Positions 38,739 through 52,330 of a DNA stretch of 64,000 nt are shown here, piece after piece. The notes under the pieces are model-generated. The model saw nothing but the letters and a program-made list of their open reading frames with translations, was not told where the DNA came from and searched no databases. A program made the position numbers and the translations under genes. The DNA comes from Phycisphaerae bacterium (GTDB lineage: Bacteria > Planctomycetota > Phycisphaerae > UBA1845 > Fen-1342). How positions within the stretch are numbered: the stretch's first letter is position 1; every line of letters begins with the position of its first letter. The stretch lies in the NCBI GenBank assembly GCA_963675745.2, contig CAXXWX010000019.1, positions 256,001 to 320,000 of the forward strand, in the 5' to 3' direction.

Positions 38739-38918
38739 TCGGTCTTCCTTTCGGCTGTCTATGCCACGTCCACGGTTGTGGCGGCACGTGCCGCCTTCCG
38801 TTGACCGGCCACCTGGAAACCACTACATTTATCCGGCGGTCCCGTTATTCGGTGTGGGCACCGCATGGCTGGGCAGAAAACCCTCATTCGTGCCACGTGT
38901 ACCCGGAGGCAGTCACCC

Positions 38919-41900
38919 ATGTACAACCAGCGGCTCGCACGCGTGTCTGTGGTCACGCTCACAGTGCTCGCAGGTATTATGACTACCATCTGGCTGGGCG
39001 GCTGTCCACTCGCCCCTCAGCCCCAGCAGCCGACAAGCGCCCTCGACGGTTCGGGCGCGGATTCAACAGACGGGACCGACGGTACCGATGGAGGCACAAC
39101 GACGCCATCCGGGCCCAACGATCCACGTCCGGTAACCCCCGCAGGCGGCGACAGTAACGAGCCCACGGAGCCCGTGGAGCCGTTCGACCCGTTCATACCG
39201 GTCGACGGCGGGGGCGACGGTGGCGGTGACGGCGGCACGATTCGACCCGTTACGGTCGAACTCATCGAGCCCCTCTCACGGCTGCAAGTTCCCAGTGGAA
39301 CCATCATCGATATCGCCTTTACCGCAACCGATCCCGACGGCGCCCTCGAGACGCTCCAAGTCGTACTTTTCCGCGACAACAACGCCGACGAGGATCCCGA
39401 CGATCTCGACGACGACGGCGAGATTACCAGCGCTGATGCCGTCTTTGAACGCACCAGCACCAGCTTCGTTGCCGGTGCAACCAACCGCCTGTCTCTAAAC
39501 ACATCCGACATCTTCGATGCCGGCCTGCTTAACGCCGAGAGCTTCGGGCGCTTCGTCATCGGCGTGAGCTCCAGCGACAATCTCGGCCGCGAGGCTTTGG
39601 ATTACTCCCCCCGAGCCCTGATTCTCAAGACCGAGATCCCTGCTATCTCCCTCACCGGCCCCGTGACACCGACCAGCCCGCTGGGCATCGGCACGCCGGT
39701 CTCGATCGATTTCTTCGTTGAGGATCCTGACAACGCGCTGTTGCCGCAGCCCGATGGCCTGAAGATCATCTATGCCAAGGACGACGATGGCGACGCGCAG
39801 CCGGACGCCGGCCAGGCGATCAACACCATCGACGTCGTTAATCTCGGCGTCGGCGAAAACTCCTATTCATTCGACACACGCCGCCTGCTGGATGAGGGGC
39901 TGCTCGACGCCACCGGCGGCGGACAGTTCGTCTTCGGTGTGAGTGCCAGCGACAATGTCGGCCGGACCTATCAGCATTGGTCAGGTGGCACCGTCACGGT
40001 CGAGAGCATCGCACCCGGCGGCAGCATTAACTCGCCGGCCGGTGCGACCGCGATCCGCCCGGGCAACGCGCTCGAAGTGGTCTTTACCGTCACCGATCCC
40101 GACACCGTCCTGCTGGCCCAGCCTAACGGCATCAAATTCGTCATCGCCCGTGATGAGGACGGCGTCGCCGGGGCTGACGAAATTGTCTTCACCGACGCTG
40201 CCATGACCTTCGCGGCCGGCCAGCACACCTATGCGGTCGACACCAGCATGTTCACGAAACAAAACCTGCTGGACGCTGATGGCAATGGCACATTCCTGGT
40301 CGGCTTTGTGATTGCGGACATTTTCGGCCGCACAAACGCGGTTTACGCACCGTGGCAGCTTACCGTCGATAACGTCAAGCCCGTCGGCGTGATGTTCAAG
40401 ATGGCGACGCCCGACGACAACCCGCCCACCGACGATGGTGACCCCTTGCTCACCCCGTCGGTCGACCCAAGCGATGCGGACTATCCGCTGTGGATCGATC
40501 CCGAGAACCGCTTGATGACCATAAAGGGACGCGTCGGCTTCTGGTTCCGCACGACCGACACGTCCGACCTGACGATCAAGATCTGGGCCGACACCGACGA
40601 CGATGCCACTGGCGACACTGGTACGCTCGTTGCCGAGGCAGTCGCCGAAGCCGGCACCAACGTGGACACCGCGCTCAGTATCGACCTGACTGACCTGGCG
40701 CCGGACACGTACTACTACTACGTCACGATTGCCGACGCCGTCACCAGCGATCCGTACGCCTTTTACGCGCCGACACTTGATGACGGAAGTGACGATATTC
40801 GCCTCGGTCTGACCAAGCGCCTGGTTGGCGAGTTCCGGCTCGAACGGCTCACCGTGGAGCCTGATGATCCCCAGGATTCCGAGGGCGTCGTCTTCCAGGG
40901 TGTCAACTTCAATGACCTGGGTGGTTCGTCGCTCGCCGGCGTACCCAGTCTGAACGACGACAACGGCGATGGTGTGATCGACGAGAACGACAACGCCGAG
41001 TTCATCATTGGCGCGCGCTTCGGTAAGGCTTACATCATCGAGAACAACGGCGTCGGGTTTGGTGAGGCTTACCTGCTCTACGGCAACGCCGGCCGACTGT
41101 CCGGCACCAGGCCGTTGAACACCGTCGGAAGTTCCATCGACGGAATTGTCTTCCCAGGTATCCGCACACCGCGGGCCGCTGGGGCAACGGTTCCTCTGCC
41201 ATCCAACCCCGTTCTCACGTATCCGGCCAACGAGAGCACGCGCTGGACCGCCGGTCTTTCGGATGTCACCGTTGTGCCCGACATGGACGGTGATGATCGC
41301 CCCGAGCTCGTGTTCAGCTTCCCGCGCGTCGAGTCGGTCTCGCTCAGCGTCACCAGCCCGTCAGTTCAGCATCCGGAACTGGTGCCCGATCTTAACGCCA
41401 TGGGAAATCTCGAATACAACGCCTGGTATGGGCTTGTGCCTTCGTGGCACGTCAACGAGTCGCAGTTTACGCGTGGCGGCGTTGTCGTCGTGTCCAGTCA
41501 CAACGAGCTGCTGCAGTACCCGGATCTGCTCAACCGCAAGGCCGACCGCGTTATTGACCTGCACGAAGTCGGCCAGCTCTTCAGCAGCATGAGCCGGCCC
41601 GATCCGGTTATCTATCCCGCGCTGGTCTTCTCGCGCGGCGACACTTGTGCTGATTGCGATGGCGACCTGAGCAACGGTTGGGATGCGGGCGACAACGCTG
41701 ATCCTAACAACCCGACGCCGGGCAATTGCGGCGACGACAACTGCGGCGATCCCACGGATGGACGCGAAGAGCAGATCGCGCGCTGGGTCATCGAGTGGGA
41801 CATCGCGTTCAACAACCAGGGCCCCGGCGGATTCCTCCAATCATGGACGGTGCCACCCGCCGAGCCGCCGCTGGCGAACCCGGCCTCGTGGCCGTACCCG

Positions 41901-43940
41901 ACCGGGCTGGGCTTCCCGTTGTTCGCCTACCCGAATATCTGGGCCGGGGACGTGGCATTCTGCGAGGACAAGTGCGAAATCACCAATGAGTGGTTTTCGT
42001 GGTTCCCGACTCTGCCTGGTACTACGCTGGCCGGCACACCTTCCTGGGCGACCACCGGCGATCCGTACCACGATCCGCTCCCGCAGTGCTACGAGGACAG
42101 ACGCCAAGCGCCTGACGTCGAACCGGATCCCCCGTGCCCGCCGGATGTGGATGAGACAGCCACCGATTCGGACAACGATGGCATCAACGACTGCCCGGCG
42201 CCGACGCTGGCTGACACGGCCACATTCACCACCTATCCCGACGCTGGCGGGGCCATAGCCTGGACCGGCTTCTACGGGCCCTATGTCTATCCCCGCGTCA
42301 GCGTAACGACCGGCGACACATTCCCGACGCCGATCGGCGCCCGCGTGCTCGGCCAGGAGCTTGACGACCAGTTCGGTACGGCCGTGGCTTCGGACGGAAC
42401 CTGGCTCATGATCACCGCGCCAAACCGCACGGCCAACGGTAATCACTACACCGATGATGTTCCCGCACTGACCGGCTCGCGCAACCTGTCGGGCGTGGCC
42501 TATCAGTTGCGCACGCTCTCGCCGGGTTCCAATGGAGTGAACCGCTCGCAGCTCTGGCTCGAACGCGAGGGCGCATACAATCCCGACACCGGTCAGTTCA
42601 CCTTCCGGTTTGGTGATCCCGAAAACCCCAACTGGACCATCACCCGTTGGCCGCAGGTTGACGTCGAGGACTTCACTCGGACCGACTACACCATGCCGGT
42701 GCCGCACAACTACATCATCGAGGCGATCGGTTCCAAGCGCGGCTCCGTTGACATGTACAACCGCGCGATGGGAGCCACGTGTCCGCCGGAATACAATGCC
42801 GGCGAAACCGGCGCTGATGCCGCTGGCATAACCGCGTTCACGCCGTACCCGGTCGGTACCGCCGGCTATTACATGGACCGCACACCCCAGATCGTGGGGC
42901 CACACGAAAACGCCAAGCTCTCCTTCGTCCGGGCATTGGGCGACGTGAACGATGACGGTGTCAACGATTTCGCCGTCGGCTCCCCCAATATCCGCAAGAC
43001 GGTGCCGGGCACGCCGGTTACCTTCAGTGCCGATCCAGCCGACACCGTCGGTTCGATCTTCATCGTTTACGGCCGGCCGACCGGTGTCGAGGGTGATTAC
43101 CTGCTCGAACAGCTCGCGCTAGACATCAACGACAACAGCCGCCTGAACGGCGTCCTGCTCCAGGGCTCGAAGGTTGGCGAGACGCTAGCACGCGTCTTTG
43201 ATGACGCCGGAGACTTTAACGGCGACGAAATCGCCGACGTGGTCATCGGCAATAAACAGGCCAATAACGGCACCGGCGAGGCGATTGTCCTCTTCGGCGC
43301 CATTGACCTGGTCAGCCCGGCCGGCGGTTGGACCCCCGACAACATCCCCGCAGGCCGCGCCATCCGATTCGTCGGTGAAGCCGTGGGTGACCTGGCCGGT
43401 GCCAATGTCACAGGCGTCGGCAATATAGATGCCGACACCAAGAAGAGAAGCACCGTCGATCCGGTTTCCGGTGAGACCATCATCGAAGACACCGGCATCG
43501 GCTTTGACGATATCCTCATCGCCGCGCCGAATGCCGATGTGGATCTCGACGGTGACGGGACGATTTCAAGTGACGAGCAGAGCGTCGGCAAGGTCTATCT
43601 GATCTACGGATCAGATGAGCTTTCCGGCACCATCAACCTCGCCGATGTCGGGACCGTCGACGTGCCCGGAGCCGTCTTCATCGGACGCAGCGGCGGCGAT
43701 CAGCTCGGTGGCGGTCAGAAGCTCATCGGCGGCACCAACCCCAACTTCGATGATCCCGCTGTGCCTGATTCCTACAACGTTCAGGCTTTCTCACGCGGCG
43801 TGGCCCAACTGGGCGACATCGATGGTGACGGAGCCGACGACCTGGCGATCAGCGCCATGCTCGGCGACGTGCTCGGACGCCAGGATGCCGGCGAAGTCTA
43901 CGTCATCTACGGTCGCAAGGGTGAGGGCGCCCCGGACTAG
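38919..43940 (+). CDS. Giant acidic lipoprotein with Ig-like repeats and FG-GAP (integrin-alpha-type) propeller
   Basis: Lipobox LGGC and GGAGG SD. Three ...DPD...LLD...G.F..G...D..GR repeats. Several GDxNxDG.xD..(I/V)G(A/S)P and G.(V/A)Y(L/V)(I/L)YG motifs. Confidence 0.85.
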   Translation: MYNQRLARVSVVTLTVLAGIMTTIWLGGCPLAPQPQQPTSALDGSGADSTDGTDGTDGGTTTPSGPNDPRPVTPAGGDSNEPTEPVEPFDPFIPVDGGGDGGGDGGTIRPVTVELIEPLSRLQVPSGTIIDIAFTATDPDGALETLQVVLFRDNNADEDPDDLDDDGEITSADAVFERTSTSFVAGATNRLSLNTSDIFDAGLLNAESFGRFVIGVSSSDNLGREALDYSPRALILKTEIPAISLTGPVTPTSPLGIGTPVSIDFFVEDPDNALLPQPDGLKIIYAKDDDGDAQPDAGQAINTIDVVNLGVGENSYSFDTRRLLDEGLLDATGGGQFVFGVSASDNVGRTYQHWSGGTVTVESIAPGGSINSPAGATAIRPGNALEVVFTVTDPDTVLLAQPNGIKFVIARDEDGVAGADEIVFTDAAMTFAAGQHTYAVDTSMFTKQNLLDADGNGTFLVGFVIADIFGRTNAVYAPWQLTVDNVKPVGVMFKMATPDDNPPTDDGDPLLTPSVDPSDADYPLWIDPENRLMTIKGRVGFWFRTTDTSDLTIKIWADTDDDATGDTGTLVAEAVAEAGTNVDTALSIDLTDLAPDTYYYYVTIADAVTSDPYAFYAPTLDDGSDDIRLGLTKRLVGEFRLERLTVEPDDPQDSEGVVFQGVNFNDLGGSSLAGVPSLNDDNGDGVIDENDNAEFIIGARFGKAYIIENNGVGFGEAYLLYGNAGRLSGTRPLNTVGSSIDGIVFPGIRTPRAAGATVPLPSNPVLTYPANESTRWTAGLSDVTVVPDMDGDDRPELVFSFPRVESVSLSVTSPSVQHPELVPDLNAMGNLEYNAWYGLVPSWHVNESQFTRGGVVVVSSHNELLQYPDLLNRKADRVIDLHEVGQLFSSMSRPDPVIYPALVFSRGDTCADCDGDLSNGWDAGDNADPNNPTPGNCGDDNCGDPTDGREEQIARWVIEWDIAFNNQGPGGFLQSWTVPPAEPPLANPASWPYPTGLGFPLFAYPNIWAGDVAFCEDKCEITNEWFSWFPTLPGTTLAGTPSWATTGDPYHDPLPQCYEDRRQAPDVEPDPPCPPDVDETATDSDNDGINDCPAPTLADTATFTTYPDAGGAIAWTGFYGPYVYPRVSVTTGDTFPTPIGARVLGQELDDQFGTAVASDGTWLMITAPNRTANGNHYTDDVPALTGSRNLSGVAYQLRTLSPGSNGVNRSQLWLEREGAYNPDTGQFTFRFGDPENPNWTITRWPQVDVEDFTRTDYTMPVPHNYIIEAIGSKRGSVDMYNRAMGATCPPEYNAGETGADAAGITAFTPYPVGTAGYYMDRTPQIVGPHENAKLSFVRALGDVNDDGVNDFAVGSPNIRKTVPGTPVTFSADPADTVGSIFIVYGRPTGVEGDYLLEQLALDINDNSRLNGVLLQGSKVGETLARVFDDAGDFNGDEIADVVIGNKQANNGTGEAIVLFGAIDLVSPAGGWTPDNIPAGRAIRFVGEAVGDLAGANVTGVGNIDADTKKRSTVDPVSGETIIEDTGIGFDDILIAAPNADVDLDGDGTISSDEQSVGKVYLIYGSDELSGTINLADVGTVDVPGAVFIGRSGGDQLGGGQKLIGGTNPNFDDPAVPDSYNVQAFSRGVAQLGDIDGDGADDLAISAMLGDVLGRQDAGEVYVIYGRKGEGAPD

Positions 43941-48647: not shown

Positions 48648-49166
48648 TCAGCGTGGACTACGTTCAAGCTCAACCACGCCCCGCAGGTCCGGCGCGCGCA
48701 GCTTACCGAACAGATCCGCGACCCAGCCCTCGTTGACGTCAGACAGGTCTATTGTGAAGTAGTCAGGATCGAGGCCCTGGAACGAGCTCGCGAGACTGCG
48801 GTCGACCAGGAAAACGATTTTCTCCTCCTCCGTCCCAACGTCAATACCAACGCGACAGGTACAGACGGGCGCGAATCGGAACAGCGCCTCGTATGATATG
48901 CACGCTCCTTGCAGGGTATACTCCACCTCTGATTCGGACATTGCCCGGCCAAGTGCGTCGAGGATTACGGGATCTTCACACCTGACCGTCCGCCAATGTC
49001 CCGCGATCTCGATTGACGTAATCTTCTGCTCCCCGCCGCCTTTGAGGCAGCTTCTTAAGGCTGCATGAGCCCGCATACACGCATAGAAGTAGGCGAATCC
49101 CAGCCCAAGTATCAATACGACACTGGACCCCGCCACGGTCACCCACAATCGCCGCCTTGTTGTCAT
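48648..49166 (-). CDS. Hypothetical single-TM protein with atypical codon usage
   Basis: N-terminal TM; many A/T-ending codons relative to neighbours. Confidence 0.5.
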   Translation of the reverse strand: MTTRRRLWVTVAGSSVVLILGLGFAYFYACMRAHAALRSCLKGGGEQKITSIEIAGHWRTVRCEDPVILDALGRAMSESEVEYTLQGACISYEALFRFAPVCTCRVGIDVGTEEEKIVFLVDRSLASSFQGLDPDYFTIDLSDVNEGWVADLFGKLRAPDLRGVVELERSPR

Positions 49167-49222
49167 TCCGTCCACGCGCACAAGACTCACGCGGCACCCT
49201 CGCCGAGCGAGGTTGCACGACG

Positions 49223-50038
49223 CTACATTCGACGAGAAACGGTTCTAAAACTTCGCGCCCTTTGTGGGATCATTACCCCCACGAGGGGGCCCGAACCGAG
49301 CCAGTATTGAATATACTCCTGGTCGACGTATTCGACTTCCAGGTCGCGGTTAAGCCGCATCATCCCGCCTCGGTGCGGGCCCCATAGGATATCTCCATCA
49401 GCCCCGGTTCGCGTGATCAGATCGCGGATCGAGTTTCCATGCTGGTACAGATCCTGAAATATCTCGTTGAGAGGTTGCTCATTGTCGCTGTCGCGCTTGA
49501 AGCGCCAGAACATCCGCCCGTCCAGAAACGCAAACCCCTCGCGCAAGTAGCTGCCGCGCGGGCTGGCCTCGCGATTGGGCTGGTTGACCGAGGCCGGCCT
49601 GAGCGTGTAGCGGAAGCGGCCTTCGCCGCGCGGCCATCCGGCCTTGGCGGATGGGCACACGAAGATCGCCTCACTGCCGCCCAGGTACGGCCGCCCGATG
49701 AGATTCGGCAACGAATTGGGCCAGTAGTCCACATTGGGCTGCTCGCCGGGAGCATCGGGGAAGAGCTTGAACGGGTCGCACTTCTCATTGGGGACCGCGT
49801 TGGGATCGGCGCCGAAGACCAGATTGACCATGGGCGACCAGACATATGGCACGCGGCCGTTGTTCTCGTTCATGTACCCCCAGAAACCGGTCGAGACCTG
49901 ACGCATATTCGATGCGCAAATGCACCGCTTGGCCTGGTCGCGCACCGCTTTCAGCGACGGGAGCATGATCGAGATCAGCACGGCAATGATGGCCACCACC
50001 ACCAGCAGCTCAATAAGCGTGAATGCCCGCTTGCGCAT
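49223..50038 (-). CDS. Prepilin-type N-terminal cleavage/methylation protein (DUF1559-like)
   Basis: [29 protein letters not shown]...C.SNMRQ, F.CPS and C-terminal H-X9-DL. GAGGAG SD. Confidence 0.9.
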
Positions 50039-50070
50039 GATCAACTCCTCAACGTATCGGCGTGATCTGC

Positions 50071-51438
50071 TTACTTACCGGTAAGAGACGCGACAAAGCT
50101 GTCGATGTCTCCGTTGTTCACATAACCGTCCTCATTCGCGTCGTTCGCGCAGAAGAAGTCACAGGTGAACTGGGCTTCCCACGTCGCCTGGTCGTCGAGC
50201 GCCACGATGAATGCATCGATGTCGCCATTGTTGACGAAGCCGTCGCAGTTGGCGTCGCAGCGCGTCGTGCCGGCACAGGGATCGGTGGCGGCGGCGACGA
50301 ACACCGCGTCATATCCGACGGTGTTGCCGAAGACCGGGTCGGCGCTGTTGCTGAGGCCGAAGCCGGCGGCTTCGAGGTAGATGTAGCTCGTGGCATCCAC
50401 CGGCAGCGCTGCCAGAACGACCGTGTCGAAATAGCCGCCCAGGTCACCGGTGAAGTCGGTCAGCGCCAGGCCGCCGTTGCCCGCCGCCGTGAAGTCGTCG
50501 GTCCCGCTGCTGCTTCCGATAGAGGCAGTTCCGCCGAGCGCGGTGTTAAACGTGTTGCCAACCTGAGACACATCAACCAGCGGCCAAAGAGTGCTTCCAA
50601 GTCCCTCTCCGGTGAGCACCGGGAATGTTCCGCCAACCGGGTCGCGCTGCACGAGCCAACCACGAAATGTGCCCAGAAACTGCATGCTGCCCAGCACGTC
50701 GGGCGACGAGCCGGCGGGGTCAATCGAGTCTTCCCACAGCTCGTAGCCGAGATTGTCGATTTGATAAACGCCGCTCAGCGTGCCGCTGTTGCCCAGGAAC
50801 GGTGTCAGCGTTCCGCTGCGAGTGTCGATGCCGGGGTTGATCGGGCCGTTCTTCGAGCCATCGGGTTGCGTGCCGGCGATGGTGATCAGAATCGTGGCGG
50901 TTTCAGGAGCCTGCCCCGGGCCCCCCTCATTCGTGCCCAGCGTGTCAATGTCAACGAGTGTTACCGTCCCGCCTGACGTGTCGGCGTTGAGCTCAATGAA
51001 GCTGTCCGTGCCGGGGATTTCGACGGGCGTCGCGCCGCCGACCGGCACCAGGCTGCGGGGGGCGTTGGGGTCGCCATCAAGATCGAGCAGTGGTCCGCCC
51101 AGAAACTCAATCCCCATAAGCGGGTTAAAGCTGATGAACGGCACCGATCCACGCCGGTACAGCATGCTGAGCGAGCCGAACTCGTTCGGCTGATACATCA
51201 GGTTCTGCGGCAGGATTCCGTAATATGGCACGGTGGGGCCGACGTCGCTGGTGCCGGCCAGGCGGTCGCCGTCGTAGAAATCGGGGTAGTTTCCGACTCC
51301 GTTGTCGCCGGGCACCGAGCGTGCGACCCCCGGATACAGCAGCGTGTCGACGCCGTTGAGCAGGTAATACTTCTCCGCGCTTGCGCTGGCCGCCAATAGG
51401 CAACCCAGGACGATTGTGAGCAAAGTGTGTTTGATCAT
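50071..51438 (-). CDS. Secreted protein with C-terminal dockerin-like Ca-binding repeat
   Basis: Signal peptide (..ASASA); [16 protein letters not shown] and [16 protein letters not shown]. Confidence 0.8.
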
Positions 51439-51548
51439 CTCATCTTTCCCATTGAACGGGGTGTCTTCACGAAAATCAGACTACGCGCATATACAACCGC
51501 TACCGGTCGAGCAAGGCGCTGTCAGCAATTCAGTTATAAGAACGGTGA

Positions 51549-52097
51549 TCAGAAGCGGCGGGGTGGGGCCGGGGGGGCGCGGTCAACCGCGCAGGCGCGT
51601 ATGAGAAGCTGAAAACGTGGCGGCAGCACGGCGCAGGTGAGGCGCTCAATAGCCTGCTGCAAGCTCGCTCGCTGTTGCACGCGACTTGAGCGGGACCACG
51701 CGCGGTTCCCGGGTAACAGGCCGGGCCGCACCTCGGCGAGCAGGTGGACACAGCCACCGGCCAGCACGATCGCCTGCCAGGGCTCAATCGCCAGCGCGTC
51801 GCCATCCGTTACCAGCCGATGGGCCACGCCCGCGTGCAGCAGCAGGCTGATCAGGCAGAAGCTGATCAGCGCTCGACGCTCGCTGGGCAAGCGCAGCCAA
51901 CTGACATCGACCAGCTTCAAAATGAAGAACGCCTGCGTCACCATCAACAGCAGCAGACGCACCAGGTCGAGATCGCTCGGCGAGGTGACGCGCAACAGGG
52001 CGAACAACGCCGGCAAGTGACCCACGAACATCGCGGACCAGAAGACGACCCGCGCGGTACCGCTTCGTGTTCGTCGGTGTTTTCGTAGCACGATCAT
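51549..52097 (-). CDS. 4-TM membrane protein with C-terminal RAPP motif (candidate arrest leader)
   Basis: Four hydrophobic segments, three with His. Ends ...AVDRAPPAPPRRF*; 110 nt upstream of the next co-oriented gene. Confidence 0.65.
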   Translation of the reverse strand: MIVLRKHRRTRSGTARVVFWSAMFVGHLPALFALLRVTSPSDLDLVRLLLLMVTQAFFILKLVDVSWLRLPSERRALISFCLISLLLHAGVAHRLVTDGDALAIEPWQAIVLAGGCVHLLAEVRPGLLPGNRAWSRSSRVQQRASLQQAIERLTCAVLPPRFQLLIRACAVDRAPPAPPRRF

Positions 52098-52247: not shown

Positions 52248-52287
52248 CAAAATAAACCCGTCCCCGGCCGCGGGGGCCGGAGACGGG
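52248..52287 (-). terminator. Intrinsic terminator of clpC
   Basis: Minus strand CCCGTCTCCGGCC-N5-GGCCGGGGACGGG followed by TTTATTTT. Confidence 0.8.
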
Positions 52288-52330
52288 CCGATTTCAGATT
52301 CGCAGCACGCGCGCAACCCGCGCGATGCCA

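Follow-up and report, generated by a model that had tools for sequence, protein, structure and literature searches.

A candidate heme-responsive RAPP arrest leader ahead of heme-synthesis operons and a probable heme-uptake cassette in Phycisphaerae

RAPP and RGPP are the two motifs that support ribosome arrest in every context tested, and seven Streptomyces proteins as well as CruR have been found to stall (PMC12992588). CruR (Bp2923; DUF2946/PF11162) of Bordetella pertussis is encoded first in an uptake operon and ends in a C-terminal RAPP, with a conserved spacing from ligand site to motif, a long spacer and a C-rich 3′ end; the protein is exported and has little structure, carries a CXXC motif and senses copper ahead of a TonB-dependent transporter (PMC9426467, PMC12992588). 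Here we describe an element of comparable layout in a 64,000-nucleotide stretch of a Phycisphaerae bacterium genome (contig CAXXWX010000019.1, positions 256,001–320,000; ‘the window’). The element, termed the leader, is the product of an open reading frame (ORF) that precedes genes for a secreted protein and a prepilin-type protein (Table 1). It fairly probably is a heme-responsive RAPP arrest leader that acts in the manner of CruR; the genes that it would control in this genome form a probable heme-uptake cassette.

The leader differs from CruR in having four membrane helices, two conserved histidines and no CXXC, and in heading heme genes. PF11162, the family of CruR and CutF, did not match the window leader at an E value of 1 and was not among 25 of the 26 families listed for 128 members of the leader family at an E value of 0.1. 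The CXXC conserved about 45 residues before RAPP in CruR-type proteins has no counterpart in the family, in which a CxxC occurs anywhere in only 4 of 153 sequences. Judged from these comparisons, the leader fairly probably works like CruR while falling outside DUF2946. Streptomyces lividans has four-helix RAPP leaders too, SLIV_18480 among them. These share with the present leader four predicted helices, conserved histidines and the C-terminal RAPP, and arrest of this type of leader has been demonstrated in vitro and in vivo; compared by description only, they differ in a predicted three-His/one-Met copper site and in standing before metal genes (PMC12992588). In CutF (DUF2946) of Rhodobacter capsulatus, ligand-dependent stalling during membrane targeting likewise controls the next gene, but there copper induces the stalling and a ribosome binding site (RBS) hairpin is melted (bioRxiv 10.1101/2025.02.05.636593), a relay for which the leader loci gave no support. 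The ligand-sensing RAPP leaders described in these papers, CruR and CutF, respond to copper. ApdA/ApdP, SecM and MifM share the RAPP-type arrest chemistry and regulate sec or yidC genes (PMC10951233). HssS of Staphylococcus aureus is similar in that its transmembrane domain reads heme in the membrane, and differs in that it is a finished histidine kinase and not a nascent chain, and regulates an efflux pump at the level of transcription (PMC11237747).

An earlier note on this DNA knew of no described system with this combination of leader and downstream genes. One part is less new than that suggests, as the source data of PMC12992588 already show RAPP leaders to be enriched upstream of DUF1559 prepilins (112 RAPP against 68 AAPP, 6.5-fold). 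The ten such leaders listed resemble the present one in placing a RAPP ORF ahead of a prepilin-type gene; they are His/Cys-rich, DUF2946-like and directly before DUF1559, whereas the leader family has the secreted-protein gene in between. The supplement of the same paper holds at least four rows upstream of ferrochelatase (UCC31903.1, UCD75164.1, MCH8823978.1 and MCH8147456.1), which by eye resemble the leader family and carry no comment. The words heme, haem, porphyrin, cytochrome and DUF1559 do not occur in the main text of that 2025 paper. No heme-responsive arrest peptide, and no account of the secreted-protein/prepilin cassette, was found in a literature search to which subscription journals contributed little.

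Table 1 Features of the leader locus in the window
Feature	Position	Strand	Remarks
Leader ORF	51549–52097	−	182 residues; membrane domain of four helices, then a basic linker in the cytoplasm and RAPP near the C-terminus; candidate arrest peptide responsive to heme
RAPP arrest motif (leader residues 173–176)	51570–51581	−	six codons upstream of the stop
His27 codon, helix 1	52017–52019	−	conserved; candidate heme ligand
His88 codon, helix 3	51834–51836	−	conserved; candidate heme ligand
C-rich stretch around the motif	51521–51641	−	possible Rho loading site
Intergenic region between leader and secreted-protein gene	51439–51548	−	110 nucleotides
Secreted protein	50071–51438	−	455 residues; small β-barrel core with large insertions and dockerin-fold tail; candidate heme-capture protein
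Dockerin-fold tail of the secreted protein	50074–50277	−	fold matches
Prepilin-type protein (N-methyl; DUF1559-like)	49223–50044	−	PF07963, E = 4e-7; subfamily cognate to the secreted protein
Hairpin resembling an intrinsic terminator, at the end of the upstream Clp ATPase gene	52255–52289	−	15 pairs, 11 of them G-C; T-rich tail

The ORF, the position of the motif and its distance from the stop codon, and the four hydrophobic segments are as the earlier note described them. A RAPP in a single frame is weak evidence alone, because 161 of the 76,230 open frames of at least 40 codons in the host genome (63% G+C) carry one within their last 25 residues; that the RAPP of the leader is a real signal follows from its conservation. 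The leader family was collected with a profile built from five sequences, which gave 589 clusters at 50% identity; the best 150 of these 589, together with the matches of a first search and excluding the window’s own protein, supplied 152 homologues. Among them, 130 carry RAPP, 6 RGPP, 5 RSPP and 11 none of these, and in 137 of the 141 proteins with R[AGS]PP the motif is followed by 1–7 residues to the end. At the locus level, R[AG]PP is kept in 59 of 62 loci, a set consisting of 66 mapped loci minus four (two truncated, two duplicates), several of which share a genome or come from close kin. The profile contains the motif itself; as a control, genome matches whose alignment ended before the motif were inspected, and RAPP or RGPP was present at the end of all 19 that were not truncated. 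The RAPP codons vary synonymously across the leader loci.

These data bear on one alternative, that the leader is an ordinary membrane protein with a non-stalling RAPP and that a separate promoter serves the genes downstream. The chance occurrences of RAPP near stop codons and a −10-like hexamer after the leader stop would fit such a protein, but the motif is retained in 141 of 152 homologues while the adjacent residues diverge, proteomes avoid RAPP, and 7 of 7 such Streptomyces proteins stalled (PMC12992588), which leaves this explanation most improbable. That the leader is an arrest leader controlling its operon is, on the comparative evidence, very probable. Three leaders have kept both histidines and the cassette with the motif lost or altered (no motif in L044, HAPP in L060, RPPP in L050) and constitute natural arrest controls.

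The earlier note had pointed to histidines in three of the hydrophobic segments. His27 and the first histidine of LLHAGVAH (His88) proved conserved, the former in 151 and the latter in all 152 homologues, and both in 62 of 62 loci; the second histidine of that segment (His93, 3 of 62 loci) and that of CVHL (His118, 1 of 62) did not. Trp20 is present in all 133 homologues reaching that position, and W20, R47, F58, K61, D64 and W67 define a conserved face and loop of the membrane domain. The spacing from His88 to the arginine of the motif is 78–86 residues in 138 of 152 homologues, and the linker is variable, so that the pattern proposed earlier, a conserved motif and histidines with a diverging linker, is borne out for the two histidines. 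Four hydrophobic helices are supported by family hydropathy and by the AlphaFold model (H11–35, H42–62, H74–97 and H106–126), in which the helices are backed by a predicted local distance difference test (pLDDT) score of 80.8 and their packing is uncertain (predicted template modelling (pTM) score 0.55). The charge distribution in the family follows the positive-inside pattern of a four-helix protein with its N-terminus inside and a basic cytoplasmic tail, and would place His27 and His88 at similar depth, each on one of the two helices that run outward. Sequence searches of Pfam, NCBIfam and the PDB gave no family for the leader, no Pfam or NCBIfam family is common to 128 members of its family, and a fold search returned only generic helical hairpins (best Z score 7.5, residues 2–72).

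A free metal, iron or copper, sensed through His27, His88 and Met23 in the manner of SLIV_18480 would account for the same residues, the heme genes then being controlled as suppliers or consumers of iron or for heme-copper oxidases. The copper site predicted in a four-helix RAPP leader (PMC12992588) lends this some credit, as does the polarity that can flip inside one family, between CruR and CutF; heme-copper oxidase (COX1) occurs in 39 of 40 genomes that have the leader but in 3 of 9 that do not, kin that are not independent. TGA-N9-TCA palindromes stand before the cassettes of genomes G035, G162, G172 and G067, and we take them to be Fur-box-like. Only two histidines are conserved, however; Met23, present in 113 of 152 homologues, is replaced by leucine in 34; CxxC is rare; no copper-chaperone family was found among the 66 flanking proteins scanned; and the palindrome has no match anywhere in the host genome. 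Sensing of free metal is therefore regarded as unlikely. Palindromes of the type TGAGA-N-T-N-A-N-TCTCA, Fur-box-like and without a match in the host genome, lie in or beside cassettes at L103:5961, L074:3372 and 8889, L098:8693, L110:3164 and L123:4145.

The identity of the downstream genes points to heme as the signal. In the 62 loci (three of their labels were assigned by hand), the leader is followed in 30 cases by the secreted family of the window and in 9 by a hemH operon; in 22 a second secreted family, a PEP-CTERM protein or both come next, and one locus ends at a contig edge. The hem operons contain hemH and a divergent hemA, either as one fused gene or in succession, then hemN and hemE and often hemG and hemB. 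In the cassette loci, the order of secreted-protein gene and prepilin gene noted in the window is kept, the prepilin gene following in 36 of the 42 mapped, and the prepilins fall into two subfamilies that match the two secreted-protein families. Apart from an upstream heme oxygenase gene and a divergent radical S-adenosylmethionine gene at some loci, the remaining neighbours are unrelated between loci (66 of 91 candidate flanking proteins scanned). As established by comparison of the loci, the conserved unit consists of the leader and a long spacer, with the secreted-protein/prepilin cassette or a heme-synthesis operon behind them. Ferrochelatase is fused to the divergent glutamyl-tRNA-reductase-like domain in proteins of about 760–820 residues at L055 (5900–8185, minus strand), L063, L067, L073, L095, L096 and L124; L036 and L038 encode them separately.

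The same gene order weighs on two further alternatives. The leader might gauge the capacity for membrane insertion or secretion as MifM and ApdA do, its histidines being structural: the first RAPP peptides described watch protein localization, and secreted proteins and pilins are the commonest downstream genes. Among the downstream genes mapped or scanned, however, there is no sec or yidC gene, and cytoplasmic heme enzymes lie downstream at 9 of 62 loci, making a monitor of this type very unlikely. Alternatively, the released leader could be a small membrane heme carrier or chaperone, with the RAPP tail mainly timing its folding or coupling its synthesis to the operon. The conserved face and loop of the membrane domain would suit a carrier, and leader-headed cassettes have no separate permease, whereas the leaderless cassette of G035 includes a 441-residue membrane protein. 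Yet the leader is the first gene of the operon, with a long spacer next, in all 61 loci with downstream sequence; it also heads synthesis operons; and it is lost in G040 and G035 though the cassette stays. We consider a carrier rather improbable.

One genomic argument for a heme-responsive leader is its recurrence. Ferrochelatase is encoded in 12 of 301 genomes of the class, and 7 of these 12 have the leader directly before hemH (one, G193, was found only through a targeted look at its hemH). In the leader tree (164 columns, fast search, 2,000 replicates, midpoint root), the nine hem-operon leaders occupy about four places, and a single clade is rejected (approximately unbiased (AU) test, p = 1.5e-6); the tree indicates repeated association of the leader with hem operons, not its direction. 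Heme genes also accompany the cassettes. A heme oxygenase gene lies immediately upstream of the leader in 6 of 62 loci, three of them confirmed by Pfam. The leaderless cassette of G035, preceded by a sigma-70-like promoter with the palindrome, runs into the gene for the 441-residue membrane protein and a ChuX/HutX gene (E = 1.9e-31). For the second secreted family, 18 further loci were fetched, comprising G040, one locus with a truncated leader and 16 others; in G040 a heme oxygenase gene precedes the cassette without a leader, and in 4 of the 16 distant loci a heme oxygenase gene comes right after the cassette. The ‘metal or heme’ of the earlier note is narrowed to heme because the leader heads hem operons in unrelated branches and the cassette occurs with heme oxygenase and ChuX/HutX; that heme is the signal is likely on this genomic evidence.

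The host genome has no match to HemA, HemB, HemC, HemH or ChdC and none over the cut-off to AhbD; it encodes COX1, a cytochrome c assembly protein and Rho. Among 18 relatives in the host family (f1), ferrochelatase is found in none, HemB in one and heme-copper oxidase in 16, an apparent heme auxotrophy across this Phycisphaerae family. The cassette of the window is probably a surface heme-capture module in a host without a detected heme pathway; the case for heme uptake by the cassette rests on the genes found with it, not on the secreted protein itself.

The mechanism that we propose would begin with the co-translational insertion of the four helices into the inner membrane. The N-terminus would stay inside, and His27 and His88 would lie in the outer half of the membrane and the conserved Arg47 and Arg94 at its outer face. 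The ribosome would stall at RAPP, about 47 residues past helix 4; 47 residues exceed what the ribosome exit tunnel holds. Under scarce heme the stall would persist and the downstream genes would be on, whereas heme b bound between His27 and His88 would reshape the bundle, release the ribosome and turn the operon off, most likely through Rho-dependent termination, as for CruR. A single polarity could serve synthesis and uptake alike, because both are needed when heme is low; iron would be expected to push them in opposite directions. Direct bis-His heme binding by the leader, of the kind known from membrane cytochrome b folds with two histidines on facing helices, is slightly favoured. The complete picture, in which a nascent four-helix protein binds heme between two histidines on the ribosome and so sets the stall, and in which this device has been placed repeatedly before hem operons and, where a lineage lacks heme synthesis, ahead of a so far undescribed module that scavenges heme with a secreted barrel and a pilin-like subunit, stands evenly balanced.

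How the stall would be coupled to the operon was addressed at the RNA level. The spacer from the leader to the next gene has a median of 207 nucleotides (range 86–435, 46 loci). In the window no promoter or terminator was called in it, and its fold is no better than that of shuffled sequences (z = −0.21). Occlusion of the next RBS by the leader 3′ end was considered in the same 46 loci, after 14 of 60 without a called start had been excluded: more than four pairs are expected in 30 of the 46, and native ends exceeded swapped ends in just 20 of 46 (p = 0.64), so this candidate was rejected. The 60 nucleotides around the arginine codon of the motif in the window contain 32 C against 14 G, a composition partly forced by the proline codons, and C exceeds G in the 30 nucleotides before the motif at 49 of 60 loci. 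The C-rich stretch and the presence of Rho in the genome weakly favour CruR-type Rho termination, and coupling of leader and operon by this route is put forward tentatively. At the other end of the gene, pairs of sigma-70-like −35 and −10 elements end 7–9 bases before the leader ATG in L044, L047, L051, L062 and L089, and a Shine–Dalgarno match is found at 4 of 51 listed leader starts (an uncontrolled count), which suggests a leader mRNA that is leaderless or nearly so.

Several observations weigh against a heme-responsive arrest leader and a heme-uptake cassette. Five of the 12 ferrochelatase genomes have no leader before hemH, G092 carries both operon types, and HemB is present in 12 of 33 leader-bearing genomes without ferrochelatase. 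Ferrochelatase is rare class-wide, cassette genomes would be expected to lack it in any case, and the argument that they do was dropped as a discriminating one. The host genome is 91% complete and has no heme oxygenase or ChuX match; its cassette includes no inner-membrane permease; and the four loci with heme oxygenase after the cassette belong to one genus. The secreted protein has no conserved histidine, its conserved residues including tyrosine and tryptophan. As for the leader, R[AG]PP is absent at 3 of 62 loci, and the AlphaFold model, with its pTM of 0.55, gives no evidence of His27 facing His88. In the spacer, a −10-like TATAAC without a −35 element lies at 51533–51538; RBS pairing in the window is 0.0 for the native and 2.5 for the swapped end; and the shift of C over G at four-fold sites is modest (odds ratio 1.31, non-independent loci).

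The co-oriented genes for a secreted dockerin-tailed protein and a prepilin-type protein named in the earlier note are supported by the dockerin fold and by PF07963. The 455-residue protein has a start that resembles a signal peptide by eye, and its model (pLDDT 88.9) comprises a small β-barrel with large insertions. The barrel matches NspA (Z score 8.3, root mean square deviation (r.m.s.d.) 3.1, 150 residues aligned), a YceI-like fold (Z score 7.4) and the HpuA barrel (Z score 4.2); no Foldseek match at an E value of 0.001, no Atlas match and no fold clearly that of a known hemophore such as HmuY, HasA, hemophilin or HpuA were found. The tail has the paired calcium-loop helices of a type I dockerin; it has no Pfam match and aligns with 6kg9 (Z score 8.2, r.m.s.d. 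2.3, 63 residues, 32% identity) and with 6kgf_D (Foldseek probability 0.99), and a PEP-CTERM-like end takes its place in some homologues. In the second secreted family, PDB matches arise via the dockerin tail only. Prediction of a complex of secreted protein, prepilin and heme gave no answer (score 0.00). The end of the prepilin gene (49223–49290) is unlike that of its homologues, which finish in G-x-x-F, and the last residues are probably off-frame in the assembly: a contig from run X1 without 8 bases at 49275 gives a GAKF-stop ending in frame, and contigs from X2 break there. The odd gene end is likely an assembly artefact or a strain variant.

Of the 301 class genomes, 23 have the window secreted family and 32 the second family. 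The window family always lies at a leader locus apart from G155 (contig edge) and G035. The second family occurs without a detected leader, divergent from the prepilin gene, at L109, L111, L113–L116 and L119–L123 (families f16 and f21). The leader family itself is present in 38 of the 301 genomes, including 35 of 44 of the host’s order, and a deeper profile adds two. Of 400 other genomes sampled across the phylum, 2 gave a match, including one that belongs to another class, and there is one Ca. Hinthialibacteria record; named records are Phycisphaerae or Planctomycetales metagenome-assembled genomes, and one Atlas cluster is labelled mostly Acidobacteriota.

If the proposal is correct, a large cofactor would be sensed inside the membrane during synthesis of its sensor, adding a new layer to the control of heme homeostasis. 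A function would be suggested for an unannotated secreted-protein/prepilin cassette, with a hint as to how planctomycetes with few TonB-dependent receptors (0–1 in five genomes) might scavenge heme. The host’s sole TonB-dependent receptor match (C26:338148–339392; L104) adjoins an ATP-binding cassette (ABC) substrate-binding protein, and no heme gene was found among its scanned neighbours.

The leader is separated from the upstream Clp ATPase gene by a terminator, as stated earlier on this DNA, here seen as the hairpin with its T-rich tail. That gene, presumably clpC, is of ClpB/ClpA type by NCBIfam, below every cut-off; it was rejected as part of the leader unit, being directly upstream in just 6 of 62 loci. 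A radical S-adenosylmethionine (SAM) gene is divergent from the leader in seven loci (L054, L058, L061, L064–L066 and L070; family f2), with a weak viperin-family match (E = 3e-4) and a host homologue elsewhere in the genome. In the window, a co-oriented 180-residue ORF (48648–49190, minus strand) with one hydrophobic N-terminal segment begins 32 bases after the prepilin gene; no family was found for it and no relative among the other mapped loci. Further away, positions 38865–43940 (plus strand) encode an acidic protein of 1,691 residues, which contains FG-GAP repeats and begins like a lipoprotein.

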